Positions 5,385 through 32,641 are shown, numbered from the stretch's first letter. The stretch: DNA of 40,917 bases from Candidatus Nomurabacteria bacterium (GCA_943355135.1 CALREG010000001.1:1-40917), one strand, 5' to 3'. Numbers and translations: made by a program. Notes: generated by a model not told the origin, from the sequence alone.

Positions 5385-6725
5385 TCATTTCAACATGAGG
5401 CGGATCTGGTGAAGTTCGTTGTTTAAGACGCTGTCCTGGCGCAAATCATTTTTAATTTTGTCGCAGGAATGTATGACAGTTGTGTGATCACGGCCACCGA
5501 GCTTCTCTCCTATGGTGGGGAAGGATATCCGGAAGTCTTCGCGTAGGAGAAACATAATAACTTGCCGCGGTCGCACTACTTCTTTGCGGCGAGTCTTCTC
5601 ATAAATACTCCCCTCCTCTACGCCATAGAAGTTGGCAATAATTTTGACCACCTCTTGCACCGACACCGCCTTCTTTTGAGCACTCCCTGCACCACGTAGG
5701 AGCGTCTTGGCGTCGTTTATAGTCAGCGGTTGGCCTCGCATCTCAAACTGGATCATAAGCGTGTTTAAAGCCCCTTCCAGCTCGCGTACGTTGCCCTCAA
5801 TGGTGGTGGCAAGGTACTCCAACACCTCATCTGCCAGAATGAAGTTATGAGCGGCCGCCTTGGTGCGGATAATAGCAAGGCGCGACTGGTGGTCAGGAGG
5901 AGTAACCGACACAATCATGCCGGCATTAAAGCGCGACTTCAGGCGGTCTTCGAGGTTTTGTATGACGTTCGGGTGCTGATCGGAGGAAAAGACAAGCTGT
6001 TTGTTGCCGTCGTGGAGATAGTTGAAGAGATGAAAGAATTCTTCTTTGATTTTGTCGCGTCCGGCCAAAAATTGTACGTCGTCCATGATAAGAAGGTCGT
6101 ACTGGCGGTATTTTTCTTTAAAGCTCTGTACCTTCCCTGCTTGGAGTGAGGACACATAGTCCATAGAAAACTTTTCGGACGTAACATAAAACACTTTGCG
6201 CTCAGGCGCGCTCACGCGAAAGTGGTTGCCTATTGCTTGTATGAGGTGGGTTTTACCCAAACCGGTTGGTCCGTAGACGAGTAGTGGGTTGTACGCGATG
6301 CCTGGCTTGCGGACGACCGCTTGCGCGGCGGCGTGGGCAAGTTCGTTGAAGGGACCAACAACAAATGTAGAAAAGGTAAACCGTGGGTTGAGGTTGCTCT
6401 TTTGATGTACTGCCTCGAGCGGTAGTTCGGTCACTGGTGGGGGCACGGTGCGTACTTCCTCGCTGTTGCGTTTAGGGCCGCGAGATATAACGTACTCGAC
6501 GGTACGTACCGAGTCTGAAAGGGTGCGTAGAGAACGCAAAATATCTTTGTGAAATTTAGTAGAAAGCCAGTCTCGGGCAAATTGGGATGGCACACCGAGC
6601 GCTACGGTGCCATCTTCTACACGGACAATATGGGTGTCGCGGAACCATGTGTTGAAATTGGGCTTGGAGATGGTGAGTTCGAGCTCTACCAGTGCGTTTT
6701 CCCAGAGTTCTTTTGTGGTTGTCAT
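5385..6725 (-). CDS. dnaA: Chromosomal replication initiator DnaA
   Basis: AAA+ Walker A GPTGLGKTHL, Walker B LLIMDDVQF and a C-terminal DnaA-box binding HTH (GGRDHTTVIHSCDKI); 446 aa. Confidence 0.97.
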   Translation of the reverse strand: MTTTKELWENALVELELTISKPNFNTWFRDTHIVRVEDGTVALGVPSQFARDWLSTKFHKDILRSLRTLSDSVRTVEYVISRGPKRNSEEVRTVPPPVTELPLEAVHQKSNLNPRFTFSTFVVGPFNELAHAAAQAVVRKPGIAYNPLLVYGPTGLGKTHLIQAIGNHFRVSAPERKVFYVTSEKFSMDYVSSLQAGKVQSFKEKYRQYDLLIMDDVQFLAGRDKIKEEFFHLFNYLHDGNKQLVFSSDQHPNVIQNLEDRLKSRFNAGMIVSVTPPDHQSRLAIIRTKAAAHNFILADEVLEYLATTIEGNVRELEGALNTLMIQFEMRGQPLTINDAKTLLRGAGSAQKKAVSVQEVVKIIANFYGVEEGSIYEKTRRKEVVRPRQVIMFLLREDFRISFPTIGEKLGGRDHTTVIHSCDKIKNDLRQDSVLNNELHQIRLMLK

Positions 6726-6843
6726 GGAGATAAGGGAATGGAGTCACTGACCAGTGTATGCGAGCACTCGGTAGGAGTCAAAAAAGCCCTTTTTGTGCAC
6801 AAGTTGTGGAGAAACTGGGGATAGAGTATAGTTGACACCGTAT

Positions 6844-6978
6844 ATGTCGCAGACATACCAGCCAAAAAAGCGCAAACGCGCCCGCGCACACGGGTTTTTG
6901 AAGCGTACGTCCACTCCGGGCGGCAAAAAGACCATACTGCGCCGCCGCCGCAAAGGCCGCGCCAAGCTCTCTCGCTAA
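6844..6978 (+). CDS. rpmH: 50S ribosomal protein L34
   Basis: Below the ORF-track cutoff. ATG at 6844 and TAA at 6976-6978. Translation is [44 protein letters not shown] (44 aa), a typical L34. It precedes rnpA as usual. Confidence 0.95.
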
Positions 6979-7008
6979 TTGCGGCCGCCCCTGTCGCCTA
7001 CCCCTCTC

Positions 7009-7305
7009 ATGCTTGCTAAAATAGCTAGGCTTACGGCAGCGGAGGTTCGTGAGATACTTAAGAGTGGTCGCTCAGTCCGCTCAGGCACACTCTCGGCCAA
7101 ATATATCCCTGCTACAGGTGCGAAAGCGGCGGTAGTAGTAAGCAGTAAGGTTGCCAAGACCGCGGTTCTGCGTAACAAGTTGCGCCGTGCCGCCTATCTC
7201 ACCCTTCGCTCTACCCTCCCCCATAATCGGCACATTGTCTTCTTTCTGCATAAGCCGCTTGTCGATGAAAAAGAACTAACCCAGCTATGTTTGAAACTTT
7301 CTTAG
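7009..7305 (+). CDS. rnpA: RNase P protein component
   Basis: Follows rpmH and has the basic RNR-type segment LRNKLRRAAY. The ORF-track start at 6979 is TTG; ATG at 7009 (MLAKIARL...) is more plausible. Confidence 0.85.
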   Translation: MLAKIARLTAAEVREILKSGRSVRSGTLSAKYIPATGAKAAVVVSSKVAKTAVLRNKLRRAAYLTLRSTLPHNRHIVFFLHKPLVDEKELTQLCLKLS

Positions 7306-8003
7306 TACAACCTATCTACAACTTGTTTGTTGCGCTTGCCGGCGTGGTGCCGCAAGGCGACGCAGGCCTCGCTATTATTCTACTCACGCTCTTGATGCGT
7401 CTGGTGCTCTATCCGGTCTTTACCGCCTCTATACGCACCCAGATGGGTATGGCCGCCATGCAATCTGACATTGAAATTATTAAAGAGAAACACAAAGGCG
7501 ACAAAGAGGCGCTCGCCCGCGAGCAGATGGCACTCTTTAAAAAGCACAAAGTTAACCCGCTCGCCGGTTTTGGCGCCCTGTTTATCCAGTTGGCAGTCAT
7601 TATTGCCCTGTACTACGCACTCTTTAACGAGGGCTTCCCCGTTATTAAAACAAGCCTGCTCTACTCGTTTGTGCAGGCACCAGAAGCAATATCCACTTCC
7701 TTTTTTGGGCTCATTAATCTTCTTGAGCCGCACCATGTAGTGCTCGCACTTTTGGTTGGCCTTACCCAGTACTTTGCTATCCAGCTTACGCTCAGCCGCA
7801 CCCCCAACCCACACCCACACGGCTCGGATAAGGCCGCGGTAGCCCGTATGCAACAGAATATGATGCTGTACCTTATGCCCTTGGTTATGGCCGTTACCTC
7901 CTACTATTTTGCCGCTGCCGTAGGCCTATATTTCGTTGCCAGCAACGTCTTTTCTCTAGGGCAAGAGTGGATTATCCGCAGGCAGCTCCAAACACAAAAC
8001 TAA
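7287..8003 (+). CDS. yidC: Membrane protein insertase YidC (short form)
   Basis: 238 aa and polytopic, with the conserved segment KHKGDKEALAREQMALFKKHKVNPLAGF...ALY. Overlaps rnpA by 19 nt and has the canonical rnpA-yidC-jag order. Confidence 0.9.
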   Translation: MFETFLVQPIYNLFVALAGVVPQGDAGLAIILLTLLMRLVLYPVFTASIRTQMGMAAMQSDIEIIKEKHKGDKEALAREQMALFKKHKVNPLAGFGALFIQLAVIIALYYALFNEGFPVIKTSLLYSFVQAPEAISTSFFGLINLLEPHHVVLALLVGLTQYFAIQLTLSRTPNPHPHGSDKAAVARMQQNMMLYLMPLVMAVTSYYFAAAVGLYFVASNVFSLGQEWIIRRQLQTQN

Positions 8004-8056
8004 ATCAGCAAAAAGTCCAGTTCTACCAAGACGCGTCTTCCTGTATAGTCTGATAC

Positions 8057-8527
8057 ATGGACGCGCAACTCCTTAAAACCTTTATTACAGACTTCCTGAA
8101 ATTGCTTGATGTTGAGGTGACGGCGCTTGAGGTAAAGACTGGCCACCGCACACTGGTCGTTGTCGAATCGGGCGACTCTGCCCGCCTCATCGGCCCAAAC
8201 GGCGAACATCTGCGCGCTCTTAATATGATTGCGCGTAGAGTTGTGGAGCAGAAGCATGGAGAAGAGGCCGCAAACTTTCTTATAGATGTAAATGCGTATC
8301 ACGAGACTGCGATGGAAAAGGTGCGTCAAAGTGCGCGCATGCTCGCCCAGCGCGCGCGGTTGTTTAAACATGATGTAGAACTTGCGCCCATGAGTGCGTA
8401 CGAGCGCTTGGTCATACACGAGCTCTTTGCCGAAGACCCCGAAATTAAAACCGAGTCCGCAGGCGAAGGAAAGTTCCGCCACATTGTCTTAAAGTACAAA
8501 GACGCAGGGTTTATTGCCCAGAAATAA
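8057..8527 (+). CDS. jag: Jag/KhpB-like RNA-binding protein (KH + R3H domains)
   Basis: Position after yidC and an R3H-type segment (ERLVIHELF). TGtTATAGT (8042-8049) lies 7 nt upstream of the ATG. Confidence 0.85.
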   Translation: MDAQLLKTFITDFLKLLDVEVTALEVKTGHRTLVVVESGDSARLIGPNGEHLRALNMIARRVVEQKHGEEAANFLIDVNAYHETAMEKVRQSARMLAQRARLFKHDVELAPMSAYERLVIHELFAEDPEIKTESAGEGKFRHIVLKYKDAGFIAQK

Positions 8528-8528
8528 T

Positions 8529-9755
8529 TTATTTTTTGAGCCGTACGCCCCAAAGGCTGCGGTCGCCGGTGCGTATAAAGAGTAAGTAACTGTCGTCCGG
8601 AGAGACTGCAAGTTCGGCAATGCTCGACTGCTCTCCCCCGTCCACACCTCCAGGTGAGGCAATAATAGTAGAACCTCCTTTAGCAAGATCAAACTTCAAA
8701 ATAGTGCTTGCAGCGCTTGCAGCGCCCATGTGCCAAAGATCCAGATAGTTTGCAGCAACATATGAGATGGGTGTTGCACAGTACAGTGTGGTAGAAGTGG
8801 CGTTGCTCCATCGGCAGAGCTCCGGTATAGGGTCGAAAGAGAGAGGTGTTGCAAGGCCCGTTTTGACGTTCTGCGAGTAGGTGGAGCGGCTTTCGTTGGC
8901 AGTTTGGTACACCACACGCCCAAAAGTGCGGTCTGCAATGGCAGTAAGTCCCGACGCATACACTAACGGGGCTGAAGCGCCTGTTTTTGCGTCTATAGAG
9001 AAGACCACCCCCGGTATGCCAGTTGCGGAGTTTGTTTGAGCGAGTAGTGTGCCCTGTGCGGGCCAAGAAATCTGCAGTTCGGAGAATGGTAGGCTAAGTA
9101 GCTTTTTTATATTTGAGCCATTTGCGCCAGCAGTATATATGTCTGAGCCGTTTGCGGTTTTAATCAGGTAGGTGACACTCGCCCCATCGGGAGAGACATC
9201 TAGGTTTACTATGCCTTGCTGGAGAAATTCGATACGCACGGGAGTGGTTGTTGTCGCTTCTGCACTTGGAAGCGCGAGGTGCGCCGTTTTTATAACGCCG
9301 CCATCAATGTACTGTACAAGAGCCCCCCTTCCCTTTTCGCTCCACACGGTACGCAGAACTCCGGGGATGGTGGTGTTTGAGCGAGGTTTGGCCACTGTGC
9401 CGGGCGAGTCTAGTACCAAGTCAAATATATGACCATTGTTTGCAAGGACAAAACGCACCACGGTGGAAGTTGCCGGACGGAGCGTTTGCATCAGTGTCGC
9501 TCCTGCGACGGGGCCATTAGCTATCTTAAATACTTTGGTGGTGTTTATAACACTCTCGGTAATAGATTGTGCCGCATTAATTCCGCTGGTATTGCCTACA
9601 CCAGACGAAGTGCGCGTTTCGCTGTTGCCAAACTGCTGGGGTGTAGTGTCGGGAGTAAAAGTAGGTGTTTTAAAAAAGACAACCCATATGATGAGACCCG
9701 AGGCGACAATGCCCGCACCTACTATTCCTGCAATTATTTTCCAGTTGGTATCCAT
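8529..9755 (-). CDS. Hypothetical N-terminally anchored protein, possibly with beta-propeller-like repeats; last gene of the T4SS-like locus
   Basis: One TM helix (IIAGIVGAGIVASGLIIWVVFF). The C-terminal part has PD40/TolB-like strings (AVSPDDSYLLFIRTGDRSLWGV). ATG at 9755 lies 2 nt after the upstream stop; the track start at 9782 is GTG and overlaps the pilin gene. Confidence 0.7.
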   Translation of the reverse strand: MDTNWKIIAGIVGAGIVASGLIIWVVFFKTPTFTPDTTPQQFGNSETRTSSGVGNTSGINAAQSITESVINTTKVFKIANGPVAGATLMQTLRPATSTVVRFVLANNGHIFDLVLDSPGTVAKPRSNTTIPGVLRTVWSEKGRGALVQYIDGGVIKTAHLALPSAEATTTTPVRIEFLQQGIVNLDVSPDGASVTYLIKTANGSDIYTAGANGSNIKKLLSLPFSELQISWPAQGTLLAQTNSATGIPGVVFSIDAKTGASAPLVYASGLTAIADRTFGRVVYQTANESRSTYSQNVKTGLATPLSFDPIPELCRWSNATSTTLYCATPISYVAANYLDLWHMGAASAASTILKFDLAKGGSTIIASPGGVDGGEQSSIAELAVSPDDSYLLFIRTGDRSLWGVRLKK

Positions 9756-9757
9756 AC

Positions 9758-10345
9758 TTAGTAGGCTCCGGCGTATTGGCACGACTGGGTGTTGTCAGGG
9801 TTTACTTTTATTGCATAACCTAGCTGTTTTTCGCAGTCAGCACGTTGGGCATCGGTCGGAGGAGTTTGTGTCGCGGCTCCTGCGGGGTTTGAACTTCCGG
9901 GTGGCTGAGCAGTAGTGCTGTTAGGTGCTGTTTTGCCAAGTTTACCGAGTGAGGTAAGGTCAAATTTTAAGAGGTCAGGGTTTATGGTGTTGAGTATAAG
10001 CCAGCAACTGGTCAGCAGCAGCAGCCCCCAGAGCGCGGCCTTGGCGCGGCTCTTGGCCTTGTCTATATCTCCCGCGGCTTCTGAAATCATGTACCCGATG
10101 CCCGCCACCACCAACATAACAACCGCAAAGAGCCCACCGACGCTGATCAGGAGGCGGAAGAGGTTAGAAAGAAAGTTTGGGAAGTTTACGGTGCCACTCT
10201 GGCAGTTTGGGACCCCTGGGGGGCATGGCAGAGGTTCCAACGCTGTGTAAGTTCCTACGCCATTCTCAAATTTTGTTTGAGCCATTGCAGGAAGAGCAAC
10301 TGTAAAGATAGAAAGAAAAACAAGTGTAATTAGAATTTTTTTCAT
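9758..10345 (-). CDS. TrbC/VirB2-like T4SS pilin candidate
   Basis: Signal peptide MKKILITLVFLSIFTVALPAMA. Two hydrophobic helices are separated by the short charged loop SEAAGDIDKAKSRAK, the VirB2 topology. There is a Pro/Thr-rich C-terminal extension. The start overlaps the upstream stop (ATGA). Confidence 0.65.
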   Translation of the reverse strand: MKKILITLVFLSIFTVALPAMAQTKFENGVGTYTALEPLPCPPGVPNCQSGTVNFPNFLSNLFRLLISVGGLFAVVMLVVAGIGYMISEAAGDIDKAKSRAKAALWGLLLLTSCWLILNTINPDLLKFDLTSLGKLGKTAPNSTTAQPPGSSNPAGAATQTPPTDAQRADCEKQLGYAIKVNPDNTQSCQYAGAY

Positions 10346-11979
10346 AAGCCGATGAAGTCAAACAACCCGTTTGATTGTGCGCCGAAGACTATTTGCAACG
10401 CGGCAGAAGCTGTTTGTATTAATTGGTCGGCGTTGCCGTTCTGCATAGAGACCCCAACTGTCGCCCGTCCTTCTCCGGAGCCTGTCTGTCGCAGAGTCAG
10501 TATCCCCCGCGCGCTGTCAGGACCAGTAGTTTCGGTATCATTGAGTGTCCATACAAACGGTATAAGTCCGGCCTTTTTACTTGCCGCAGAAAAGTAGTAC
10601 GGCTCCGCCTGAAGCGTAATTTCCTTGCCTGCGAGCGAAATGGCGCTGGGAATAGCTGTGTTGTAGAGTACTCCACGCAAGGCATCGCGCTGGTAGAGCA
10701 CTATCAAAGGGTCCCGAGTAGCAAGAAACAGCTCAGCCCGCCCAACTTTGTTGACCCCATAGTACACTTCAACCGCTATATCCTCGCCTGCTTGCAGCTG
10801 GTCGCCGGTGTTGGTAAAAGTGTTGCGCCCAAGGCCAGACTGCTCCGGAACAGAATCCCCTTTATAAAACCACTGGTATGAAAGTGCACTTGCCGCAACA
10901 CGGGCCGAACCCGAGTAGACCGTTGGGAGCGCCACTACTTTATAATCTGAGCCGGCGCTGTATAGCGCTTTGCCTTTATACAGTGGCGGCACAGTGGTAT
11001 AGGCTTCCCAGAGTAGGTTAATGCGCGATGGATTAAAGCTGAATGTTTGGGTAAAAAAACCTTGGCTAGAGTCTATAGCCACCTGCACGGTTGTTTTTTC
11101 TCCAAGAGCACCGGTCATAAAGGTGTAGTCTCGCTCACCTATCCCCTCTTTGACCACTTTGCCGTTTAATGACCACGTAATATCCGCACTCCCTAGGAAG
11201 GAGCCGACTCCTTGTACCGAAATAATAACCTTTTCATACGCGCCCGGGGTTTCTGGCGCGACAATATATTGGATAGGTGCGGGAACTACCTGCGCGTGTG
11301 CTTGTATGCCAACAAAAAGGAGGAGTGCAAGCACGGCACCCTTAGCGGCGGGGCGAATATCCTTAAATTTATCTAAGAGCGGGGTACGTAGAACCTCACG
11401 TACTTTTTGATGCGCAGTGGTATCAAATTTTTGAGCTGGGGCAAAGCGGCGTTGAGCGACCAGTTGAGCATTATGTTTAAGTCCGTATGGCCCTTCTCCA
11501 CGCGCTTTTACAAATCCAAAAGCGTTTTTGGAGGTCCCCGCTTTTTCTTCTTTATTTTTTGCTTGTATGCAAGCCCACACCATATTGCTCCAAAGAGGCA
11601 AAAAGTTTAAAAACGGTGCAAGTTCACCCAACATGCGGCTGATAATGATGCGCGGGTAAAATAGACCAAACATCGCCATCATCATAATGAGTGCTCCCCC
11701 AATGGTAATACTGAGAGCAACGTCAACTACAATCCCGATAGGTATGGCAAATGCGCTGACTCCAGCGCCCACAACCGCGCCACCCACGGCACATTTGCCG
11801 GCGGCAATAAGACCTGAGATGACCCCGGTGGAAGCATTCCAGCAGTAAGCGCCGGCCGCCAGAGCGCCGGTCACCCCGCCGCCTACAGGTGTGGCAAATT
11901 GTAGAGCAAAAAACGCCATACCGACCGCAAACTGGATGAAGTCGAGTACTATCGCAGGGAGTAGAAGAAAGTACCGCAT
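10342..11979 (-). CDS. Hypothetical polytopic membrane protein with a large extracytoplasmic C-terminal domain (T4SS-locus protein)
   Basis: 545 aa. The N-terminus has several Gly/Ala-rich TM helices, with a further TM before a roughly 330-aa beta-rich domain. Tightly coupled to the virB4-like gene by a 2-nt gap. Confidence 0.7.
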   Translation of the reverse strand: MRYFLLLPAIVLDFIQFAVGMAFFALQFATPVGGGVTGALAAGAYCWNASTGVISGLIAAGKCAVGGAVVGAGVSAFAIPIGIVVDVALSITIGGALIMMMAMFGLFYPRIIISRMLGELAPFLNFLPLWSNMVWACIQAKNKEEKAGTSKNAFGFVKARGEGPYGLKHNAQLVAQRRFAPAQKFDTTAHQKVREVLRTPLLDKFKDIRPAAKGAVLALLLFVGIQAHAQVVPAPIQYIVAPETPGAYEKVIISVQGVGSFLGSADITWSLNGKVVKEGIGERDYTFMTGALGEKTTVQVAIDSSQGFFTQTFSFNPSRINLLWEAYTTVPPLYKGKALYSAGSDYKVVALPTVYSGSARVAASALSYQWFYKGDSVPEQSGLGRNTFTNTGDQLQAGEDIAVEVYYGVNKVGRAELFLATRDPLIVLYQRDALRGVLYNTAIPSAISLAGKEITLQAEPYYFSAASKKAGLIPFVWTLNDTETTGPDSARGILTLRQTGSGEGRATVGVSMQNGNADQLIQTASAALQIVFGAQSNGLFDFIGL

Positions 11980-11981
11980 AT

Positions 11982-13790
11982 TTATTGAGCCGCCTCGGCC
12001 TTTTTTTGTCGCATGGCGAGTACTTGCGAGGGGTCGGAGGTGATGATTTGGTCTTCGGTGTAGGAGGCGATGACTTTGATGGCAACATGTTTAAGACCAG
12101 CAAAGAATATCCCCTCCCCTACATCAGACTCTAGCAGTAGGAATTTTTCTTCATCAGATAAATTGAAGGTCTTTTGCAAGTTATCAATTGTCGTTGGCGA
12201 CTGCTTGAGCAAAATTTGTATGGACGAGTTGGTAATCATCGGCAGACCGTATGGCGACTTCAAAAAGTCGTCGACGTCCTGCGTAATAGTCGCGAGTCCG
12301 AGGTAGTATTTGCGGCCACGCTTTGCCATCGAGTAGAGGAAGCTCGCGGTATCATCCGACTTCATCATCCACCACGCCTCGTCGATGACCAATAGGCGCT
12401 TTTTGAGGTTTTTGCGCACCGCGTTCCAAATGTAGTGCGTAATCAGATACATGGCGACCGACTTGAGGTCATCCTCCATATCGCGGACAGAAAAGACGAC
12501 AAATTTTTTGTTGATGTCGACGTTGGTCGGCTGGTTGATAAAGCCCGACCATGTGCCCTTGGTGTATTTAGACAGACGCTGCACCAACGACTCGCTCCCC
12601 TGCAGTCCTGCCAGCACCAACTCGAAGTCGCTCAAGAGTGGGGGCTCTATCTCGGCAAAGTTGGAGTCTACCGTGATGTCTTTAAGCGCGTAGGTTTCGG
12701 TGATGGCGCGGTCAATAATGGCGTCCTCCTCGGGGGTAAGACCGCCGAGCATAATACGGAACATCCCCACCAGCGCAACAATATTACTACGCAGAATGTC
12801 CGCCGGCGCCTCGTCCTCACGCGGTATAGGTAGGTCAAACGGGTTGATGTGACTCTCTGAGTTGAGCGATATGTTGAAGTAGCGCCCGCCGACGGTCTGG
12901 GCCAAAAATTCGTACTCACGCTCCGGGTCTATCACAATAACTTCGGTATCAAACATCAGTGTACGCAAAATTTCGAGCTTGGTGGCGTACGACTTACCCG
13001 AACCCGACTTAGCAAAGATGACCGAGTTGTAGTTCTCCAAACTAAAGCGATCAAAGAGCACGAGCGAGGCGTTGTGGCGGTTGACACCGTAGAGTATGCC
13101 TTTGTCCGAAGTAAGGTCAAAGGATACAAACGGAAATATCGAGGATAGTGGGCTCGAGTTGAGTTTGGAGTTGACTCCCAGCTCGTCGTGTCCGAGCGGC
13201 AACACCGACTTAAAGCCCTGCTCTTGCTGGAAGAGCGCCGGCTTTACATACACCAAACGCGACTCAAGCATGGATTTGATTTCGCTCTCGGCTTTGTCTA
13301 AATCTTCTACCGATGCGCCGTAGATGGTAATGTACACGCCGACGTTAAAGAGCTTTTCTTGCGCCTGCTGCAGCTGGTCGCGCAACTGCTCGAGGTCTTG
13401 GTAAGCGGTATCCAGTATTGGGTCGCGCACGAGGCCCTTCTCCTCCCGGCTCATAATCTGCGACTGCACCTCAGCAACCTTTTTTTGGAATTTTTTGAGT
13501 ATCTCAGCCGAGTCGAGCGGGTGGATGAATATTGATATATCGAGCACACGGTCGAGGTTGATGATTGGAGAGAACCACGAGTCAGTCAGGACTCTTGGGT
13601 AGGACATCACAAAGAAAGTGCGCGCTATTTTGTCACCGAGGTTTATTTCGCGCGGAGTGATTTTGAGTGCCGAGGGGGCAATGACGTCCTGCAGCTCTAG
13701 CACCCCCTCTTTGTATATTTGCTCGGGGAGGATAGAGGCCATCACCGCGGGGGCTTCTTTCTTTTTGCTTAAAAAATCTAGGAGTGCCAT
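11982..13790 (-). CDS. virB4: VirB4/TrbE/TraC-family T4SS ATPase
   Basis: Walker A AKSGSGKSY and Walker B LLVIDEAWWMM. The N-terminal segment DVIAPSALKI...ARTFFVMSYP is typical of VirB4 N-domains; 602 aa. Confidence 0.88.
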   Translation of the reverse strand: MALLDFLSKKKEAPAVMASILPEQIYKEGVLELQDVIAPSALKITPREINLGDKIARTFFVMSYPRVLTDSWFSPIINLDRVLDISIFIHPLDSAEILKKFQKKVAEVQSQIMSREEKGLVRDPILDTAYQDLEQLRDQLQQAQEKLFNVGVYITIYGASVEDLDKAESEIKSMLESRLVYVKPALFQQEQGFKSVLPLGHDELGVNSKLNSSPLSSIFPFVSFDLTSDKGILYGVNRHNASLVLFDRFSLENYNSVIFAKSGSGKSYATKLEILRTLMFDTEVIVIDPEREYEFLAQTVGGRYFNISLNSESHINPFDLPIPREDEAPADILRSNIVALVGMFRIMLGGLTPEEDAIIDRAITETYALKDITVDSNFAEIEPPLLSDFELVLAGLQGSESLVQRLSKYTKGTWSGFINQPTNVDINKKFVVFSVRDMEDDLKSVAMYLITHYIWNAVRKNLKKRLLVIDEAWWMMKSDDTASFLYSMAKRGRKYYLGLATITQDVDDFLKSPYGLPMITNSSIQILLKQSPTTIDNLQKTFNLSDEEKFLLLESDVGEGIFFAGLKHVAIKVIASYTEDQIITSDPSQVLAMRQKKAEAAQ

Positions 13791-13794
13791 ATGG

Positions 13795-14454
13795 TTATTT
13801 TGTTGCCAGCTGCTCTACTTGCAGTGGCTTTTCCAGCTCGCCGGGGTTAAAGAGCTTGTAGAAGAGCTCTATTACCTCTTCGGTGCCGAGTTTGACCGTG
13901 CGCACGCCGGTGCGCACCAACCCCTGCTCGATGACCGAAATACGCTGCTCCAATTGCGTGCGGTATTGCTCAAACTGCTCGTCGGCCAACGGACCCATCC
14001 CCTTACTGCTTTTTGGGAGGATAGAGCCGAGTATCCCGCCGCTGCGATTGACCAGCGCGGGATCGTACGGCACTACAATAAAGAAGTTTTTGGTCATAAT
14101 ATTTGCGCGCTCGGTAAAGTCTTTGATGAATGCCATATACTCGCGGATTTGTATCTTCATCAACTCATCAAGCTCTTGCGCGTAGCGGTCTTGCAGGAGC
14201 GCAATGTAGGGGCGGATGTCGAGGTCGCGGCTTTGTATAGAAAACTCCACCGTAAACTCGAGTGAGTTGAGGAAGTTTTGAAACTGTCCGATGATAGCCT
14301 GTTGTTCGTCCTGCGACTTGAGCGCCAAGTTTATAGATGAAGCCATCAAGAGCACGCGCAAAGAGCCGTCTTTCAATATAATAACGCCGTCGCGCACCTC
14401 TTTGATAGGTACAAATTCCTGCGTCGCCTTAGATTTTATTTTTGTATCAGGCAT
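13795..14454 (-). CDS. ATPase-less VirB4 N-terminal-domain-like protein
   Basis: 219 aa. EFVPIKEVRDGVIILKDGSLRVLLMASSINLALKSQDEQQAIIGQFQNFLNSL follows the pattern I recall from N-termini of Gram-positive VirB4 homologs (Tn916 Orf16/TcpF type). No Walker motifs. Confidence 0.55.
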   Translation of the reverse strand: MPDTKIKSKATQEFVPIKEVRDGVIILKDGSLRVLLMASSINLALKSQDEQQAIIGQFQNFLNSLEFTVEFSIQSRDLDIRPYIALLQDRYAQELDELMKIQIREYMAFIKDFTERANIMTKNFFIVVPYDPALVNRSGGILGSILPKSSKGMGPLADEQFEQYRTQLEQRISVIEQGLVRTGVRTVKLGTEEVIELFYKLFNPGELEKPLQVEQLATK

Positions 14455-14894
14455 TATATTTCAAAACCGCTCTTTGCAGCGGTGGAGGCTCCCGATTCGG
14501 TATGGTCTTTGATATTGAGTGACCAAGACAGGTCTTTGAGCTTGCTCTGCGAGAGTTTTGGAATGGGTAGGTTGGCTGGCTTGGCGGCAACAACAGCCAC
14601 TTTCGCGCTCTCGGTGCGTTGTTTCCACAGATACAGCTTGCTCCCAAAAAAGTAATTGAAGCCGTGTTCAACTGCATGTATGAGCGGCCTGCCGTTTATT
14701 TCAAAGAAAGCGAGCCCGGCCGAAAAGGCCATGACGGGAATTCCTAAGATTATTGTAAGGTAGAGCGGCAGAAGGGAAAAAAGTAGGAGGCACAGCCCTC
14801 CCCCGCCGGCGAGCCAGATAAACTGCTTGAGCGTCAGCGGCCCAAAGATTTTATCCTCTACCTCTATAAATTGAGGAACTTGATACTGAGCCAT
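14454..14894 (-). CDS. PrgI/VirB3-like small membrane protein
   Basis: The N-terminus MAQYQVPQFIEVEDKIFGPLTLKQFIWL is followed by two TM helices, the PrgI-family pattern. It lies immediately upstream of the VirB4-type genes. Confidence 0.65.
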   Translation of the reverse strand: MAQYQVPQFIEVEDKIFGPLTLKQFIWLAGGGGLCLLLFSLLPLYLTIILGIPVMAFSAGLAFFEINGRPLIHAVEHGFNYFFGSKLYLWKQRTESAKVAVVAAKPANLPIPKLSQSKLKDLSWSLNIKDHTESGASTAAKSGFEI

Positions 14895-14901
14895 TGCTCT
14901 A

Positions 14902-14919
14902 AGTATACCCCATGAGATA
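14902..14919 (-). promoter_or_regulatory. Motif copy A: TATCTCATGGGGTATACT, 7 nt upstream of the prgI-like ATG
   Basis: The rc of 14902-14919 reads TATCTCATGGGGTATACT. The TATACT -10-like box (14902-14907) is followed by 7 nt and then ATG at 14894. Confidence 0.6.
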
Positions 14920-14933
14920 ATCGTGTTGTTACT

Positions 14934-15194
14934 ATGTACTACGTTTATATTTTGCGTAGCCCCAAGCAGTTTTATACCGGTTCAACCAACGACTTAAAAA
15001 GACGCTTTTCCGAGCATCAAGAGGGTAAATCCTTTGCAACAAAAGGAAAAGGTCCTTGGCAGCTTGTCTATTATGAGGCTTGTACATCCGAAAAAGATGC
15101 TCGACTACGTGAAAAATATCTAAAAACTGCTTGGGGTAAAAGATATATTAAAGCTCGTTTAAAATATGACCTCGCTATCTCACGGGGTATATAG
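14934..15194 (+). CDS. Small GIY-YIG (URI-domain) nuclease family protein
   Basis: MYYVYILRS...FYTGSTNDLKRRFSEHQEGK...PWQLVYYE...REKYLK matches the stand-alone GIY-YIG family; 86 aa. It lies on the opposite strand inside the T4SS-like locus. Confidence 0.9.
   Translation: MYYVYILRSPKQFYTGSTNDLKRRFSEHQEGKSFATKGKGPWQLVYYEACTSEKDARLREKYLKTAWGKRYIKARLKYDLAISRGI
15176..15191 (+). repeat. Motif copy E (TATCTCACGGGGTATA), inverted partner of 14904-14919
   Basis: 15 of 16 positions are complementary to TATACCCCATGAGATA at 14904-14919. It overlaps the last codons of the GIY-YIG ORF. Confidence 0.7.
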
Positions 15195-15202
15195 CAACTT
15201 TT

Positions 15203-15733
15203 CTATGTAGTTGGCTCGCGATAGGGGTCTGCTTTGTATGGTTGCGGCGCGGTTGGCTCAACTTTAGGTGCTGCAGGTGGAATAAGTGGTTTTGGCGTAG
15301 GAGGAGCTACTGTAGTGACCGTTTTTTGCGAGAGCATCGCGTCGGCAGGGTGTAATTCGGCTGGTTTCGATATTGCCGAGGTGACTGGGGTGCTTGGACC
15401 AGAAGGAGCCCCTTGTCCGTCGGCCTTTTTCATTGAGCCACGGATCGGAACCATAATTTCCTTTCCAATATCTACCGCAATGTCACCCGCTGTTGTGGTG
15501 GATACACTGAGGTCATTAACCAGTTGAGACATAAATTCTTCAGGCTCGGTAAATCCCATCATAAACATGACCACCTCATCCTCGAGTTTGCCCATCTGGT
15601 CTATGTGGAGTTGGTGTTTGCTTCCAATAATCCGGATTTTTTCATGGAGCTGTGGCGACTTGAGGGCCGCTTGTAGTTCGGTCGGCAGCTTAGAAAACTG
15701 CTCCTGCATTAGTTTCTGAGATTCAATGTCCAT
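15203..15733 (-). CDS. Hypothetical soluble protein with a Pro-rich C-terminus (T4SS-locus protein)
   Basis: 176 aa ORF, 17 nt downstream of the VirB6-like gene. No recognisable motif. Confidence 0.7.
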   Translation of the reverse strand: MDIESQKLMQEQFSKLPTELQAALKSPQLHEKIRIIGSKHQLHIDQMGKLEDEVVMFMMGFTEPEEFMSQLVNDLSVSTTTAGDIAVDIGKEIMVPIRGSMKKADGQGAPSGPSTPVTSAISKPAELHPADAMLSQKTVTTVAPPTPKPLIPPAAPKVEPTAPQPYKADPYREPTT

Positions 15734-15750
15734 GTTATTCCGTTAGTCGA

Positions 15751-17895
15751 TTAATGATTATCATCTTTTTTAGGCTCATCCTTCTTTTCCTCTTTTTTCT
15801 CCGCATCACCATGGTCGTCTTCGTTCATCTCCTTAATCTTTTCTATCAATTCATCTGACTTACTCTTCCCTTTTCGTATCTTCTCCGCGGCAGTCTTTTC
15901 TGCCTTTGGTACCCACAAAGAAAGCGTTCTGAAGAGATTGCCCTCATTTGACGTTATGTGTTTAGCAAATTGTTCTTTGTAGTTTGGCGCCAGTTTTGTT
16001 GTTGTAGCTGCAACCTCCTCTTTTTCTTTTTTATCGAATTCAACTTCTCTCTTTTTTGCGGCATCGAGAGCCTCTTTAGCAATCTCTTGAGTGATTTTAT
16101 GTGTATCAATCAATCCTGCGATGTTGCTACGTTGTATATCATTTTGTGCATTACCCAAATCTGTTTCAAGTTGAGCAGCTCTCTTTGTAGAAACTTGGTG
16201 AGTGTCTGCCGCTGTTTTTACTTGAGTTTTTATCGTTGTACGCTCGCTACTGTATTTCTGTTCGAATTCCGCCTTGGCTGCTGTCTCAGCTTTTGCCTTT
16301 TCATCCTTACTCGGGGCTTTAAATTGTTCGGCTTCTTTTTGCAGCGCTTTTACGCGGGCATCGAAGTCTCCTTTATAACCACCCTTATTCGTTGCTTTGC
16401 CAAATTCAAGCGGAGTTACTTTGCCGTGGACATCCACACTCCCTCCAACCAGCCCGAGGCTTTTATTAATTGTTTTTGAGTTTCTGCCGTCGAAAGTGGC
16501 TTTTCCTATCCGGTTGACTCCGCTCAGTAGGTTCCTACCCACCACGCCTTTTGAGCCGAGGTTCTGCATAAATTTACTCTGACCTAGACTGTATGCGCCC
16601 AAGCCGAGCGTATTGCGCCCAGCAAACCCGGCTAAGCCAAAACTCTTACCTGTAAGGTTTCCGGTGACTTTTGAGGCGATACCGCTTCCTTCTTTGACCA
16701 CCCAGTCTGATACCTTTAGTGCCACAAACATCAGTGCGATGATAAAGCCCATACGGATGAACACCGATGCTATAAGGCCGACAGTGGCTATTTCGTCGGT
16801 GCCAGAGCTTGCGGTATTGGCTATTGCGTTAAGCAAGTTTCCATTACCGGTGGTGTTTCCAGTAAGTAGAGTTCCTGCAAACCGAGTGAGTATAAGGAAC
16901 ATAAAAAGGAATATCGCTGGATAGAGCGAAAACTCTACGAGCTTTTTGAGCCATTGGTCAAAGTACCCTTCAGTCTTCTTCATAGTTTTTGCAACAAAAG
17001 CCAACGGTGACGCTATGAGCAAGAACCACAACCCCACAATACGGAGCATAAATTTAATACCCACTTGAATAAAAGTAAAAAACAACATCCAGAGCATCGC
17101 CGCAACAGACAAATAAATCACCGTAAATGTCCCTAGTGCTGCCCAAGCGCCGCCAGAAAAGACACCGCCATTCCCTCCAAGTTTGTCAAAAGTCTCCTTA
17201 CTGAGTAAGACCTGAGGCCCTACGGCTCCCATAATAGAGGTGCTCAAGTCTTTGACACCGTTGATTTGCACTATCTTGCCGTCCGCTCCTACGCCGGCGG
17301 GGATAGCATTATAAAACTGCAAGGCTAAAATGTTACCCATGTCTATTACCACGCGGGTAAAGAAGAAGCTGAAGTTGACTAACAAGGCAATGACCACAAC
17401 TATTGCGAGTGTTTTGATGGTGCCGGAAGTTTCGGCCTGTAACATGACGGTCATCGCGATGTAGACGAGGATAAAGATGAACGACATGTTGGCAAGATCG
17501 CGCACCGTGGTCCATCCGTCAGAAAGAAAGCCAAGTGCATAGGCGGTTGAGTTGAGCGAGAGTTGCACCACAATACTAAAGAAGTACGCACCCACATAAG
17601 CTACTTTACTGGCGATGAGGGGGCCTATGTAGTACATGATCACAGCCAAGCACTCTGTGATGCCCGATTTGCACTCCATTTCTGTAGAAGCAGAAGGTGT
17701 ACTGTAAGGATTTGCTTGTGTCTGTTGCGCAGTATTGTACTGTGTTTGAAGTTGTTGACATTCCGCAACATTCCCTGGATTTTGTCTTAGACATTCCTCC
17801 TGCGAGAACGGAGCGGCCTCTGCTTGTATTGGCAAAAAACTGAATACCAATATTCCAAGGGCTACTCCAAATAGTATTTTTTTACTGGAACGCAT
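15751..17895 (-). CDS. VirB6/TrbL-like polytopic membrane protein with a Lys/Glu-rich C-terminal tail
   Basis: 714 aa with a signal peptide, a Cys-containing exposed segment, at least 7 predicted TM helices and a roughly 250-aa charged, coiled-coil-like tail. Assignment rests on topology and context only. Confidence 0.55.
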   Translation of the reverse strand: MRSSKKILFGVALGILVFSFLPIQAEAAPFSQEECLRQNPGNVAECQQLQTQYNTAQQTQANPYSTPSASTEMECKSGITECLAVIMYYIGPLIASKVAYVGAYFFSIVVQLSLNSTAYALGFLSDGWTTVRDLANMSFIFILVYIAMTVMLQAETSGTIKTLAIVVVIALLVNFSFFFTRVVIDMGNILALQFYNAIPAGVGADGKIVQINGVKDLSTSIMGAVGPQVLLSKETFDKLGGNGGVFSGGAWAALGTFTVIYLSVAAMLWMLFFTFIQVGIKFMLRIVGLWFLLIASPLAFVAKTMKKTEGYFDQWLKKLVEFSLYPAIFLFMFLILTRFAGTLLTGNTTGNGNLLNAIANTASSGTDEIATVGLIASVFIRMGFIIALMFVALKVSDWVVKEGSGIASKVTGNLTGKSFGLAGFAGRNTLGLGAYSLGQSKFMQNLGSKGVVGRNLLSGVNRIGKATFDGRNSKTINKSLGLVGGSVDVHGKVTPLEFGKATNKGGYKGDFDARVKALQKEAEQFKAPSKDEKAKAETAAKAEFEQKYSSERTTIKTQVKTAADTHQVSTKRAAQLETDLGNAQNDIQRSNIAGLIDTHKITQEIAKEALDAAKKREVEFDKKEKEEVAATTTKLAPNYKEQFAKHITSNEGNLFRTLSLWVPKAEKTAAEKIRKGKSKSDELIEKIKEMNEDDHGDAEKKEEKKDEPKKDDNH

Positions 17896-19768
17896 AGCAT
17901 TGGTTGAGCTCGGTAGTGGTCAGTTGATTGCGGGTTGCAAGCGAGTTTTGCAGGGTTGTACGGTCTTGCTGTGCGTTGGTGATATCGGTTTGGGTAATTA
18001 GCGTGCCCAACGCAAGTGCTTTGCTGTAGGCTGCCTTAACCGCCGCCACGTCTCCCGGTCCAGAAACGCCGATAGCCGCGGTTTGCAGATCTTGCAGGGT
18101 CGCGATACCTTGGTTGGCGCGTGTGATGTTGTTGTTGGCGTTGTCTATGAGTGGATCGTATGAGTGGAGCGCGCGCGCCGAGCTGGTTGCAAGCGCGTCT
18201 TGCAGTTTGCTCTCCCAGCAATTGACCAGAGTTTGTAGCTGTGACTGCGTGTTTTGTATATCGCCGATAATCCCCTGTTGTACCGAGCCATACTGCTGGG
18301 CCAAGTTGACCTGTCCTTGAAGTGCGGTCAACACTCCTTGCGCGTCTGCCTGTGCCTGCTGCTGTTCGGGTGTAAGAAAGTTTGCTGCGTAGCCTTGGCT
18401 TCCGCTGAGGTTAGACACACCTCCTTGGAGCGCCTTGACCATCAACTGACTTATGAGTGCGCTGATGATCGCGTCGAAACTACCCGAGATCCCCGCTTGG
18501 GTAAGCGTCTCTTTAGATACGTTCAGCGTACTACTCAAAGAGTCGGCGATGGTGGAGCCCGGAGTAGTCACTACTTTGTCGCAGATCATTTTAGTAGATA
18601 TGCCACCAGTGTTGGGAGCTGGTCGGCAGTTACTCTCCTTTTCAGACGAGAGGAAGCCTTTGCCCAATATGTAATCCTCTTGTTTTCGGCCTACAGCAGA
18701 GTTGACGGCGAAGCTGAGTTTACCGAGACCATCTTGGTAAGCTCCAAACGAGTTATTAGTGGGGGTGCCAACAAAGGAGAGGAGTCCGCCCCACCCACCT
18801 TGGGAGAAATTGCCATTAGCAAAAGCGTTTATGTTTTTAATGACGCCTGTAAGAGTACAAGAGGCGGCATTGTTGCGTCGTGCGTAGCTTTGTGCGAGAG
18901 CGACGCGTATCTGGGCTTTAAAGGGTGAGCACAAGAACGAGAGCGCTGAGCCGCGGATAAACTCACCCGCCGCTTGGTCGGCCACATTGGTAAAGAATTG
19001 CTTGTAGTTGGTAACAAACGACGGCTTGCCGTTGAAGCCGGAGTTGATCCAGTTGACCACACTCGAGGTGATTTGTTGCACGGCGGCGCGAGCAATAGTG
19101 CGAGCGATGCAGTTTAAAAAGTTTTCGCGTATGGTATCCGCCGTTGCCACCGTGTTGAGGTAGCGCGGCGACACAGGTACTGCACTTACTGTTTCGACGG
19201 CATTGCCGGCAAGTGATGCCGTTGCGCCGCCGAGCAACCCTGCAGTGCAGAGTGCCGCACCGACTCCTACCCCCAACAAAGCCGCTCCTAAAATACTATT
19301 GCCGTTGGCATCTACGGCAGTGGCTCCACTCCCGGGGACAATGTTGGGGCTCCCTGAGACAACGCCAGTATTAAGTTCGTTGGCTGTTTTTGGAACAAAG
19401 TTGCTGGTCGGTCCTCCTCCACTCCCCGCCGAACTACCGCCAAGCCAATCTACCCCAGGGACACTTTGTATACCGCCTGCTCCCCCGCCCGTGGTTCCTC
19501 CTCCTGCTGAAATACTGCTGCCGGTGGTGCCACCACCACTCAGTGGAGTCCCTACATTTATATTTGTGTCAGAAATAACGCCAGAGGGCGTGTTGTTTTG
19601 ATTTTTTGTGGTACTGGTGGTGCCGGTTGTTCTTGTCGTTCCTGTTCCAAACGAGCCGCTGTCAGGCTGTTTAATAATCCCGTCGCGGAAGAAGAAAAAC
19701 CAGACGAGCCCGACTAAAAGTGCAAGCGCTACTGCGGCGACAATAGTGAGTATAATTCGTCTGGTCAT
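17882..19768 (-). CDS. Hypothetical N-anchored protein with a Gly/Thr-rich low-complexity region and a large exposed domain
   Basis: 628 aa with a TM helix at residues 5-27, then a GTGTTRTTGTTSTT...GGGTTGSSISAGGGTTGGGAGG region. Overlaps both neighbours (4 and 14 nt). Confidence 0.7.
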   Translation of the reverse strand: MTRRIILTIVAAVALALLVGLVWFFFFRDGIIKQPDSGSFGTGTTRTTGTTSTTKNQNNTPSGVISDTNINVGTPLSGGGTTGSSISAGGGTTGGGAGGIQSVPGVDWLGGSSAGSGGGPTSNFVPKTANELNTGVVSGSPNIVPGSGATAVDANGNSILGAALLGVGVGAALCTAGLLGGATASLAGNAVETVSAVPVSPRYLNTVATADTIRENFLNCIARTIARAAVQQITSSVVNWINSGFNGKPSFVTNYKQFFTNVADQAAGEFIRGSALSFLCSPFKAQIRVALAQSYARRNNAASCTLTGVIKNINAFANGNFSQGGWGGLLSFVGTPTNNSFGAYQDGLGKLSFAVNSAVGRKQEDYILGKGFLSSEKESNCRPAPNTGGISTKMICDKVVTTPGSTIADSLSSTLNVSKETLTQAGISGSFDAIISALISQLMVKALQGGVSNLSGSQGYAANFLTPEQQQAQADAQGVLTALQGQVNLAQQYGSVQQGIIGDIQNTQSQLQTLVNCWESKLQDALATSSARALHSYDPLIDNANNNITRANQGIATLQDLQTAAIGVSGPGDVAAVKAAYSKALALGTLITQTDITNAQQDRTTLQNSLATRNQLTTTELNQCYAFQ

Positions 19769-20652
19769 TGAGGGTACGAAGAAACAAAAACGTCCCAGGA
19801 TGTCCCCGGCTCGTCTTTACTGAAAAGTATACCGCCTTTACGCAGTTGCTCGGCGAGCGTTGTTAACACACGTGCCGATTCTGTACCCGCGGTTTGGAAG
19901 CTTTGCAACCCCGAAAGTCCGCGCATCGGGTCTTCGAGGACCATACGCATCTCTCCGGTAGCCACCGACATTGTCGAAAGGTTATTAATGAGCGGCAGAT
20001 AGAGCGGAACGAGTGTTGTGGGGACAGGAATGTTGGCAAGATCCTCTGCCAACGCGGTATACTCTGCCCCTATACCCACAAGAGACTTGAGTGTGGCGGC
20101 GTCATTGTAGTCGGTAGCATACCCGATGGCATACAAAACATCGTCGTTGCTGGCTTTAGGGTGCTTTCTAAAGGTTTGCATAACCGCATTACCCCACGTG
20201 CGCATAGTGGCCGCGTTTTGAGATACTGCATTGAGGTCAGTCGCTTTATATTGAATACTCTCAATACTCCCTACCCGAGCGGCGGCGTCGGCTATAAGCT
20301 TTTCTTGGGTGGGTATATCGTTGCCAAGGCCCTGCGCGTTGGCATTGCTGAGGTTTATAAAGAGTGAGCGTGCTACGCTTGAGGTTACATTTGAGCTCTG
20401 AGCCTCTTTTAGTAATGCTTGTATGGTGTCTTCGCTCGGCGCGGCGGGGAGTTCGGGAGCTCCTGCTTGCGCTGCCTCTAGTGCAGCCTGCCAATCTTCG
20501 GCGGGAGTGGGCTGATCAGCACTTAATACGGCTGCGGGGCTGCTTTTAGGCGCAGTAATATATTGTGCCAGCAAGATAAGTGCGCCAGAGAGTGCAATAG
20601 ACACCACTATGGTTGAAAATCGTGAACTCGGGAGATACGAAGCAACATTCAT
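19765..20652 (-). CDS. Hypothetical N-anchored protein; first gene of the T4SS-like locus
   Basis: 295 aa with one TM helix (IVVSIALSGALILLAQYI). Motif copy B lies 7 nt upstream of the ATG. Confidence 0.7.
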   Translation of the reverse strand: MNVASYLPSSRFSTIVVSIALSGALILLAQYITAPKSSPAAVLSADQPTPAEDWQAALEAAQAGAPELPAAPSEDTIQALLKEAQSSNVTSSVARSLFINLSNANAQGLGNDIPTQEKLIADAAARVGSIESIQYKATDLNAVSQNAATMRTWGNAVMQTFRKHPKASNDDVLYAIGYATDYNDAATLKSLVGIGAEYTALAEDLANIPVPTTLVPLYLPLINNLSTMSVATGEMRMVLEDPMRGLSGLQSFQTAGTESARVLTTLAEQLRKGGILFSKDEPGTSWDVFVSSYPQ

Positions 20653-27199: not shown

Positions 27200-27763
27200 C
27201 TACGAAGTTTTCAGGACAGCAGGATCCCTCGTCTGTTCCTGGATAACCAGTTCGTAGATTCGCTGGCCAGAAACTGTGAGACCATTATCTTTTCTGTATT
27301 GTTTAAATTTAAGAATATTTTCTCGCTGCTCGGGTGTAATAGCTATGGTTGAAATATCGAGGTGACCAGCATTTAATATTCGTGCACGCTCGGCCGCACT
27401 GATAAACCAGATATCAAAATTCCAGCGCTCCTCTTGTATCAATGCTTTGAGCATAATAAGCCGTCCTACCGGCTTTGCGTTGCCCAGCTTAGGATCATCC
27501 CAATCGCTTTTTATGTAGTAACTCATAAAACGCGAAGTTGTCGCAAGGTGAATAGTTTTTGCTACTTCGAACATCTCTGCCATTTCAAACTCTTTTTCTC
27601 TTACCACTCCAATATCGACATCACCGTGTAGCATGACATTCCCAGCATACGCGCCTTCAATAAAGGTGCTGCCAAATTGTTCGAGACAACGAATGAGACC
27701 GGATTCATGCAGAAAGGCGTCAGCCTGATCGTGATAAGTTTGGGCCTTTTCGGTGAGTGTCAT
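27200..27763 (-). CDS. Hypothetical protein with a pol-beta-type nucleotidyltransferase signature
   Basis: GAYAGNVMLHGDVDIGV fits the G[SA]-x(9-10)-DxD NTase pattern; 187 aa. TATACT (rc of 27770-27775) lies 6 nt upstream of the ATG. Confidence 0.5.
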   Translation of the reverse strand: MTLTEKAQTYHDQADAFLHESGLIRCLEQFGSTFIEGAYAGNVMLHGDVDIGVVREKEFEMAEMFEVAKTIHLATTSRFMSYYIKSDWDDPKLGNAKPVGRLIMLKALIQEERWNFDIWFISAAERARILNAGHLDISTIAITPEQRENILKFKQYRKDNGLTVSGQRIYELVIQEQTRDPAVLKTS

Positions 27764-32560: not shown

Positions 32561-32611
32561 CCTATAAACCCCGACGCACAAAGTGGTCGGGGTCCCGACC
32601 AAGGTGTCGGG

Positions 32612-32641
32612 ATAAAAAAGCCCCGCTCATGCAGCGGGGCT
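32612..32641 (-). terminator. Rho-independent terminator overlapping the stop codon
   Basis: AGCCCCGC (32619-32626) and GCGGGGCT (32634-32641), with an A6 run on the plus strand giving a U-run on the minus strand. The TGA (rc of 32627-32629) lies in the loop. Confidence 0.75.

Follow-up and report, generated by a model that had tools for sequence, protein, structure and literature searches.

A relaxase-free type IV secretion cluster beside dnaA in a Candidatus Nomurabacteria genome

Introduction

Between 2023 and 2025 a cluster of type IV secretion system (T4SS) genes was described in the Patescibacteria, and here we report an instance of this known system, not a new kind, in DNA of a Candidatus Nomurabacteria bacterium. 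The locus occupies positions 8529-20652 on the minus strand of a stretch of 40,917 nt (41 kb; hereafter the window) and is a genuine and complete copy of the relaxase-free, pilus-bearing Patescibacteria cluster that lies beside the replication origin in the majority of these ultrasmall bacteria. A first-pass annotation of the window, made from its sequence alone, had implied that the machine was novel, which the published work does not bear out.

In the Saccharibacterium Southlakia epibionticum ML1, Wang et al. (2023) found an “apparent T4SS” (SEML1_0006-0019) to be essential for epibiotic growth. The cluster most resembles Gram-positive conjugative systems, its pilins are essential and it is without recognisable coupling or relaxase proteins (PMC10633639). 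Quinonero-Coronel et al. (2025) surveyed 3,035 genomes and assigned 2,425 VirB4 proteins to a Patescibacteria clade nested within MPF_FATA. In these organisms virB4 is surrounded by TrsD, PrgI/VirB3, VirB6 and VirB2-type pilins, almost no relaxases occur, and homologues of the type IV coupling protein (T4CP) are mostly unlinked to virB4; in Paceibacteria the virB4 neighbours are dnaA, dnaN, rnpA, ksgA and rpmH (PMC12102498). A 2025 nomenclature review includes the Patescibacteria systems in the T4SS superfamily as recognised newcomers and speculates that T4SS and pilus act as a conduit (PMC12857230). Five accessory proteins of the locus described here (g1, g2, g4, g8 and g10) were not characterised in the survey (PMC12102498).

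Results

The locus is an operon of ten tightly packed minus-strand open reading frames (ORFs), named g1 to g10 in the order of transcription (Table 1). Neighbouring genes overlap by, or are separated by, at most 25 nt throughout, with the exception of a 308-nt gap between g4 and g5. The first-pass annotation had counted eleven co-directional, mostly overlapping genes; ten of these are indeed co-directional and tight, and the eleventh is an ORF on the opposite strand that encodes a GIY-YIG nuclease. The same gene products, including the GIY-YIG ORF and the 545-aa g8, were called independently on three other public assemblies of the organism. The operon ends 2 nt from the stop codon of jag, to which it is convergent. 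A scan for promoters and terminators was uninformative, returning 13 promoter-like sites where 11.5 were expected.

The motor of the machine is encoded by g7, which matched the NCBIfam equivalog model for CD1110-family VirB4 (NF045971) with 390 bits at a cut-off of 325, as well as PF19044 (6e-26). Both the Walker A motif (GSGKS at residue 263) and the Walker B motif (VIDEAW at residue 468) are intact. More than 8000 homologues were found, the closest of which are all from Patescibacteria. Many exceed 90 % identity and are labelled Kaiser-, Adler- and Nomurabacteria/Paceibacterota, which places the organism in the Paceibacteria. This degree of constraint, with homologues above 90 % under several candidate-phylum names, is unusually strong for a secretion ATPase.

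Directly upstream of virB4, across a gap of 4 nt, g6 matched the TrsD/TraD model NF041427 (2.9e-9) and carries a precomputed match to the TraC-like family PF26593. When both proteins were aligned to the CD1110 VirB4 model, g6 covered positions 2-117 and g7 positions 185-733. Since the two proteins cover separate parts of one model, g6 is a split-off VirB4 N-terminal domain and not an additional paralogue. The earlier description of a “VirB4 N-domain paralog” was thus right about the domain and wrong about the duplication.

Two further core subunits were recognised by profiles. The g5 product scored 38.4 bits against PF12666 PrgI (cut-off 27), and g9 scored 36.8 bits against the T4SS_pilin family PF18895 (cut-off 26.6) with a weak match to TrbC/VirB2 (3.5e-4). 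Consistent with a VirB2-type pilin, g9 has a signal peptide and two transmembrane helices. These are followed by a C-terminal extension of ~75 aa that is rich in Pro, Thr and Ala and has a Cys pair at its end.

The polytopic protein g3 gave no direct Pfam or NCBIfam match, and a PDB profile search returned R388 TrwI/VirB6 only at a non-significant E = 3.4. Its relatives were more informative. PF04610 TrbL/VirB6 is present in ~17 of its 120 best database homologues, at 50-58 % identity, and in 3 of 25 syntenic orthologues. Structure models were built for g3 and g2 only. The AlphaFold2 model of g3 residues 1-480, built on 102 sequences, had a mean predicted local distance difference test (pLDDT) score of 79.7. 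A Foldseek search of the PDB with this model placed R388 TrwI/VirB6 chains at ranks 1-8 (probability 0.91-1.00, TM-score up to 0.54), followed by Legionella DotA. Six or more transmembrane segments were predicted, and the C-terminal tail contains 46 K/R and 45 D/E residues. The TrbL matches among orthologues and the TrwI/VirB6 structural matches together identify g3 as an extended VirB6, and on this profile and model evidence the assignment stands. The VirB2-topology pilin, the PrgI/VirB3-like protein, the VirB4 ATPase and the TrbL-like protein with a long charged tail, all proposed in the first-pass annotation, are therefore retained, the VirB2 and VirB3 assignments being supported by profiles and that of VirB6 by orthologue profiles and structure.

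No domain of a T4CP, VirB11-type ATPase or relaxase turned up when the substantial ORFs of the 41 kb were searched with profiles, in agreement with the absence of VirD4/TraG, VirB11 and relaxase noted earlier; the relaxase result concerns protein domains, as oriT was not searched for directly. Both flanks consist of housekeeping genes and neither adjoins the locus with a coupling protein or relaxase.

To place the locus among its relatives, a VirB4 scan with one genome per species yielded 589 relatives, of which the best 80 were examined with 10-kb flanks (L001-L080). The order pcrA-ksgA-g1..g10-jag-yidC-dnaA-dnaN-pbp1 is kept in most of the sufficiently long loci among these 80, a recurrence far beyond chance, with synteny conserved across dozens of Paceibacteria-type genomes in the candidate phyla radiation (CPR). 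All accessory genes of unassigned family are part of the conserved block. Of the core genes, g6 (TrsD) was found in 79 of the 80 loci at 60 % identity and g5 (PrgI) in 77 at a median of 48 %. In tblastn counts, which divergence and contig ends limit, recovery rose from 23 loci for g1 through 44 for g2, 49 for g4, 53 for g9 and 62 each for g3 and g10 to 77 for g8. Over all comparisons g8b was found in 73-77 loci, g4 in 49-61 and g9 in 53-58.

Across the same genome pairs the median identity of VirB4 was 78.5 %, a figure somewhat inflated by the choice of the 80 loci on VirB4 similarity, compared with 54.6 % for DnaA, 46.2 % for KsgA, 39.6 % for DnaN and 36.5 % for YidC. Compared with DnaA, VirB4 was the better conserved protein in all 52 of 52 loci, and it also exceeded DnaN, KsgA, PcrA, YidC and PBP1 in every locus compared (78.5 % vs 36-55 %). 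The exported or exposed parts of the machine reach only 23-34 % identity. Judged from these sequence comparisons, a conserved motor combined with a variable surface is what one would look for in a machine that interacts with a host, and it is typical where the outside of a machine faces a changeable partner.

The five accessory proteins appear, from the searches made, to lack an assignable family despite their conservation. The g1 product has one transmembrane segment (residues 14-32) and no significant match in Pfam, NCBIfam or PDB profiles; syntenic orthologues occur in 23-30 loci at ~23 % identity, and 7 of 23 orthologues contain bacterial TSP3 calcium-binding repeats. The Gly/Thr-rich protein noticed in the first pass is g2, in which residues 31-190 include 38 G, 22 T and 19 S. 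In g2 an N-terminal transmembrane segment precedes this Gly/Thr/Ser-rich linker, after which come a conserved domain that contains Cys and, at the C-terminus, a helical bundle; Cys and Trp positions are invariant in the family. In the AlphaFold2 model the bundle reached a pLDDT above 93 and the remainder was poor. A PDB profile search with g2 gave nothing significant, and Foldseek returned generic helical bundles only, with no VirB5, VirB8 or hydrolase match, which leaves a VirB5-like reading of g2 unsupported. In some orthologues a PG_binding_1, F5/8-C (discoidin) or surface Ig-like domain is joined to the protein, and these fusions point to a location at the wall or surface. DUF4141 was detected below threshold near the N-terminus of two g2 orthologues (24.9 bits, cut-off 30), which we regard as a lead only.

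The g4 protein combines a conserved N-terminal helical part, a variable Pro-rich linker and a nearly invariant C-terminal DPYRE, and it had no match in Pfam, NCBIfam or the PDB profile search. It is small and has no transmembrane segment amid operon products that are otherwise membrane-bound or exported. One possible role of the DPYRE motif is to dock the protein onto a partner, for example VirB4.

Two modules can be distinguished in g8. Residues 1-~205 (g8a) form a Gly/Ala-rich polytopic membrane module, and residues ~206-545 (g8b) comprise a signal or anchor sequence followed by tandem Ig-like beta domains, for which the g8b profile gave weak Ig-like matches (Hoc at 0.015; BiPBP_C; Ig_3). 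In 6 of 7 close relatives g8a and g8b are separate, frame-shifted, overlapping ORFs. As the fused ORF is present in three independent assemblies, the fusion is real and no sequencing artefact, and comparison with the relatives suggests that it is lineage-specific. The last gene, g10, encodes a protein with one transmembrane segment (residues 16-34); its shorter form starts from the ATG at 9755, which is the gene callers' choice. The propeller-like character attributed to it in the first pass agrees with a match of the family profile to TolB (E = 0.0011), g10 itself giving weak TolB and Tricorn_N matches. Comparison of CPR family alignments with single pCF10 proteins (PrgC-PcfC) by hhalign was too insensitive, as the positive control, PrgI against PrgI, reached a probability of only 10.9.

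The GIY-YIG ORF (PF01541, 1.1e-16) runs against the operon and lies between g4 and g5, the PrgI gene, where the intergenic gap of 308 nt compares with a median of 48 nt in relatives. It is present in independent assemblies of the organism and absent from all 80 related loci. We therefore rejected it as a component of the machine; it looks like a recent selfish insertion into an otherwise compact operon.

As the first-pass annotation had stated, the locus lies next to the dnaA region. One flank carries jag/R3H, yidC, rnpA, dnaA, dnaN, a class A penicillin-binding protein (PBP) and a class I (Trp/Tyr-type) tRNA synthetase, and the other ksgA, a UvrD/PcrA helicase, a LysM-M23 peptidase, an HhH-GPD glycosylase, comM, PNPase and others. 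Positions 5385-8527 show a classical origin arrangement, the minus strand carrying dnaN and dnaA, the plus strand rnpA (6979-7305), yidC and jag. The likely oriC is the stretch of ~250 nt that separates dnaA from rnpA. The LysM-M23 peptidase is secreted and is encoded 3.2 kb upstream of the operon, divergent from pcrA-ksgA-T4SS, at a position that is the same in a close relative (L003). LysM/M23-containing VirB1-type proteins are associated with virB4 specifically in Paceibacteria (PMC12102498), and by analogy this peptidase could be a wall-remodelling stand-in for VirB1.

Further along the window, genes for tRNA-Gly (GCC), tRNA-Arg (TCG) and tRNA-Pro (TGG) surround a UPF0102/YraN-like nuclease gene (39917-40892), and no sign of a mobile-element boundary was seen in the recombinase/exonuclease/tRNA region (36246-40892). 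Six ORFs of 177-398 aa matched no Pfam family at E <= 0.05 (27200-27763, 28295-29491, 32011-32544, 32562-33449, 34776-35459 and 35514-36203). Some of them fall in a stretch of higher GC content (0.55-0.58, ~29-34 kb).

Table 1. Coordinates of the T4SS operon and of selected other features in the window
Feature	Position	Strand	Description
g1	19765-20652	-	295 aa; first gene of the operon; N-terminal transmembrane anchor and mostly helical exported domain
g2	17882-19768	-	628 aa; anchored; Gly/Thr/Ser-rich linker, Cys domain, helical bundle
g3	15751-17895	-	714 aa; extended VirB6/TrbL-like polytopic membrane protein with 234-aa mixed-charge C-terminal tail
g4	15203-15733	-	176 aa; no transmembrane segment; C-terminal DPYRE motif
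GIY-YIG nuclease ORF	14934-15194	+	86 aa; PF01541
g5	14454-14894	-	146 aa; PrgI/VirB3-family membrane protein, PF12666
g6	13795-14454	-	219 aa; TrsD-like; VirB4 N-terminal domain as a separate polypeptide
g7	11982-13790	-	602 aa; VirB4 ATPase motor, MPF_FATA-type CD1110 family
g8	10342-11979	-	545-aa fusion of g8a polytopic module and g8b Ig-like exported part
g9	9758-10345	-	195 aa; VirB2-type T4SS pilin, PF18895
g10	8529-9782	-	Last gene of the operon; membrane-anchored TolB-like beta-propeller; 417 aa (GTG) or 408 aa (ATG)
dnaA	5385-6725	-	Reference for the VirB4 conservation comparison
LysM x2 + M23 peptidase	23895-24995	+	PF01551 8e-30, LysM 3e-23
Tyrosine recombinase	36246-37169	+	XerC/D-type; only recombinase in the window
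Exonuclease III-type protein	37236-38087	+	Exo_endo_phos; follows the XerC/D-type recombinase

Discussion

The operon encodes an inner-membrane platform, made up of the VirB4 motor, its split-off TrsD-like N-terminal domain, PrgI/VirB3 and an extended VirB6, plus one VirB2-type pilin. To these it adds five or six proteins, anchored or exported, that are specific to the lineage and whose folds are of the adhesion type (Ig-like repeats, beta-propeller, helical bundle). We consider it highly probable that this is an MPF_FATA machine derived from conjugation, which has lost its DNA-processing half, is inherited vertically beside oriC and serves host contact or transfer for epibiosis rather than conjugation. 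A non-conjugative role in pilus formation, contact or uptake had been suggested in the first pass and is also the published view (PMC12102498, PMC10633639, PMC12857230). The mechanism can be outlined from established T4SS biology and the R388 and F models (reviewed in PMC12857230). A VirB4 hexamer would dock on PrgI/VirB3 and VirB6 and extract the Sec-inserted pilin from the membrane, and the extracted pilin would be polymerised into a pilus-like filament or a short conduit across the wall. The wall-spanning and host-contact part may be built by the exported proteins, which evolve fast. By touching the host cell and moving protein or small cargo out of it or into it, the apparatus would support life as an obligate epibiont.

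The conjugative ancestry raises the alternative of an ordinary integrated conjugative element (ICE), or the remnant of one, with its coupling protein and relaxase encoded beyond the window. The VirB4 family was indeed typed on conjugative elements (CD1110/CTn2, pCF10 PrgJ), a tyrosine recombinase is encoded in the window and a GIY-YIG nuclease ORF lies inside the locus. However, the recombinase is of the XerC/D type and lies 15 kb off, behind the core genes pnp, comM and cca, and GC content shows no island boundary. In the survey relaxases are rare across the 3,035 genomes, and for 99.3 % of VirB4s the nearest relative belongs to the same class (PMC12102498). The same housekeeping flanks and the same gene order are found in dozens of genomes whose DnaA is only ~55 % identical, and such conservation in divergent genomes excludes an ordinary ICE. 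VirB4 has also changed less than DnaA, DnaN, KsgA and PcrA at each of the loci, which, taken with the conserved core flanks, is not the behaviour of a mobile accessory module. We therefore reject the ICE, to which we assign hardly any probability, and conclude that the locus is a vertically inherited core machine and not a conjugative element.

Accepting a host-directed machine leaves effector export and import of host material as live rivals on cargo and direction. Protein-secreting T4SSs without a T4CP exist, such as Bordetella Ptl and Brucella VirB, and by this analogy the machine would export effectors into or onto the host bacterium to obtain nutrients. Protein export was proposed by Wang et al. 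as an alternative to DNA transport (PMC10633639), and a 2024 perspective names effector delivery as a speculation (PMC11665869). Yet neither the operon nor its surroundings yielded a recognisable candidate for an effector or immunity pair, no secretion signal is defined, and Ptl and the Brucella system work with a periplasmic intermediate and an outer-membrane core complex, neither of which a monoderm has. An effector translocator is thus on balance improbable, at perhaps one chance in four. Slightly less probable again is a machine for importing DNA or nucleotides, which, on the model of H. pylori ComB or of Ced in archaea, would run inward and supply material from the host to a cell unable to make it. 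The set of VirB2, VirB3, VirB4 and VirB6 without VirD4, VirB11 or relaxase resembles ComB, a precedent cited in PMC11665869; VirB4 gave weak matches to CedB (3.2e-9) and CedD (6.9e-4); comM lies 5 kb away (25612-27186); and uptake via T4SS and pilus has been speculated upon in review (PMC12857230). The Ced matches, though, reflect generic P-loop similarity, with 36 bits for CedB against a cut-off of 700 (cut-offs being 600-700 bits), and the best VirB4 family is the conjugative CD1110 type, not Ced. No other Ced- or ComB-specific family was matched, neither a ComEC-like channel nor a DNA-binding receptor is encoded at the locus, and comM falls within 10 kb in only 1 of the 80 loci. In S. epibionticum comEC is dispensable and the T4SS essential (PMC12857230), so the essential role is not classical transformation, and any import would bypass the known competence route. 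More doubtful still, g1, g2, g4, g8 and g10 with the extended pilin might form a CPR-specific, envelope-spanning inward conduit that draws in host nucleic acids, lipids or metabolites. If true, this would add a way of transport for which no monoderm T4SS is known.

Several points weigh against a host-contact T4SS of the kind we favour. A pilus or secretion has been shown for no Patescibacteria T4SS to date, and the 2024 perspective calls the role “completely unknown” (PMC11665869). The essentiality data come from Saccharimonadia (S. epibionticum) and not from Paceibacteria (PMC10633639). VirD4-like homologues lie far from virB4 in most Patescibacteria (PMC12102498), and our analysis covers the 41 kb of the window. 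Searches of Pfam, NCBIfam and PDB profiles, and of g2 with Foldseek, gave no VirB8-like (NTF2) or VirB1-like (lysozyme) match for any operon protein, although these two components vary within the clade and do not strictly define it. The ~75-aa C-terminal extension of g9 is not seen in canonical VirB2, and the selection of loci by VirB4 similarity makes the motor look somewhat more conserved than it is.

The machine is among the few envelope systems common to most CPR and is essential for on-host growth in the one species tested. The window offers a clean and complete Paceibacteria example, with ten syntenic genes, a VirB4 more conserved than DnaA and fast-evolving surface parts. It adds little beyond the papers of 2023-2025; what deserves notice are the subunits that are conserved but unassigned, and a VirB4 that evolves unusually slowly. 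The five family-less conserved partners are obvious targets for structural and genetic work on host exploitation by ultrasmall bacteria.

The H. pylori ComB system is a T4SS subset that lacks VirD4, VirB11 and relaxase and is put to non-conjugative use. In contrast to the present locus it is a diderm system with VirB7-10 homologues, and the comparison extends to the VirB2, VirB3, VirB4 and VirB6 families only. With pCF10 (prgD-pcfC) and CTn2, the MPF_FATA prototypes, the window shares PrgI, a CD1110-family VirB4 (PrgJ) and a VirB6-type polytopic protein, encoded side by side in the same order, as well as a monoderm architecture without VirB7, VirB9 and VirB10. pCF10 differs in having the T4CP PcfC, the relaxase PcfG, the hydrolase PrgK, the VirB8-like PrgL and LPXTG adhesins. 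All of these are missing from the window. The window locus, for its part, has a VirB2-type pilin, whereas pCF10 has no pilin, and is chromosomal and vertically inherited.

With S. epibionticum the window shares PF18895 pilins, a site next to the origin, a cluster without coupling protein or relaxase and, as judged from a structure-based table (PMC10633639), a core that runs VirB6-PrgI-TrsD-like-VirB4-large unknown-Ig-like exported protein. S. epibionticum differs in its six pilins in tandem, its two VirB6-like proteins, an NTF2-like protein of VirB8 type and a VirB1 of the phage-tail-lysozyme kind. In the window there are a single extended pilin, one VirB6 and a TolB-like propeller, with no NTF2 or lysozyme gene recognised in the operon. 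The closest correspondence is to the Paceibacteria arrangement of the 2025 survey (PMC12102498). An MPF_FATA VirB4 with a TrsD-like neighbour, PrgI/VirB3, VirB6, a VirB2-type pilin of family PF18895 and a vertically inherited chromosomal position, the features of the Patescibacteria clade, are all present here, as are the lack of a relaxase and of a T4CP linked to the locus and the site beside dnaA, dnaN, rnpA and ksgA. The window departs from this arrangement in its single pilin instead of an array, its fused g8 and its GIY-YIG insertion; in everything essential the two are the same.

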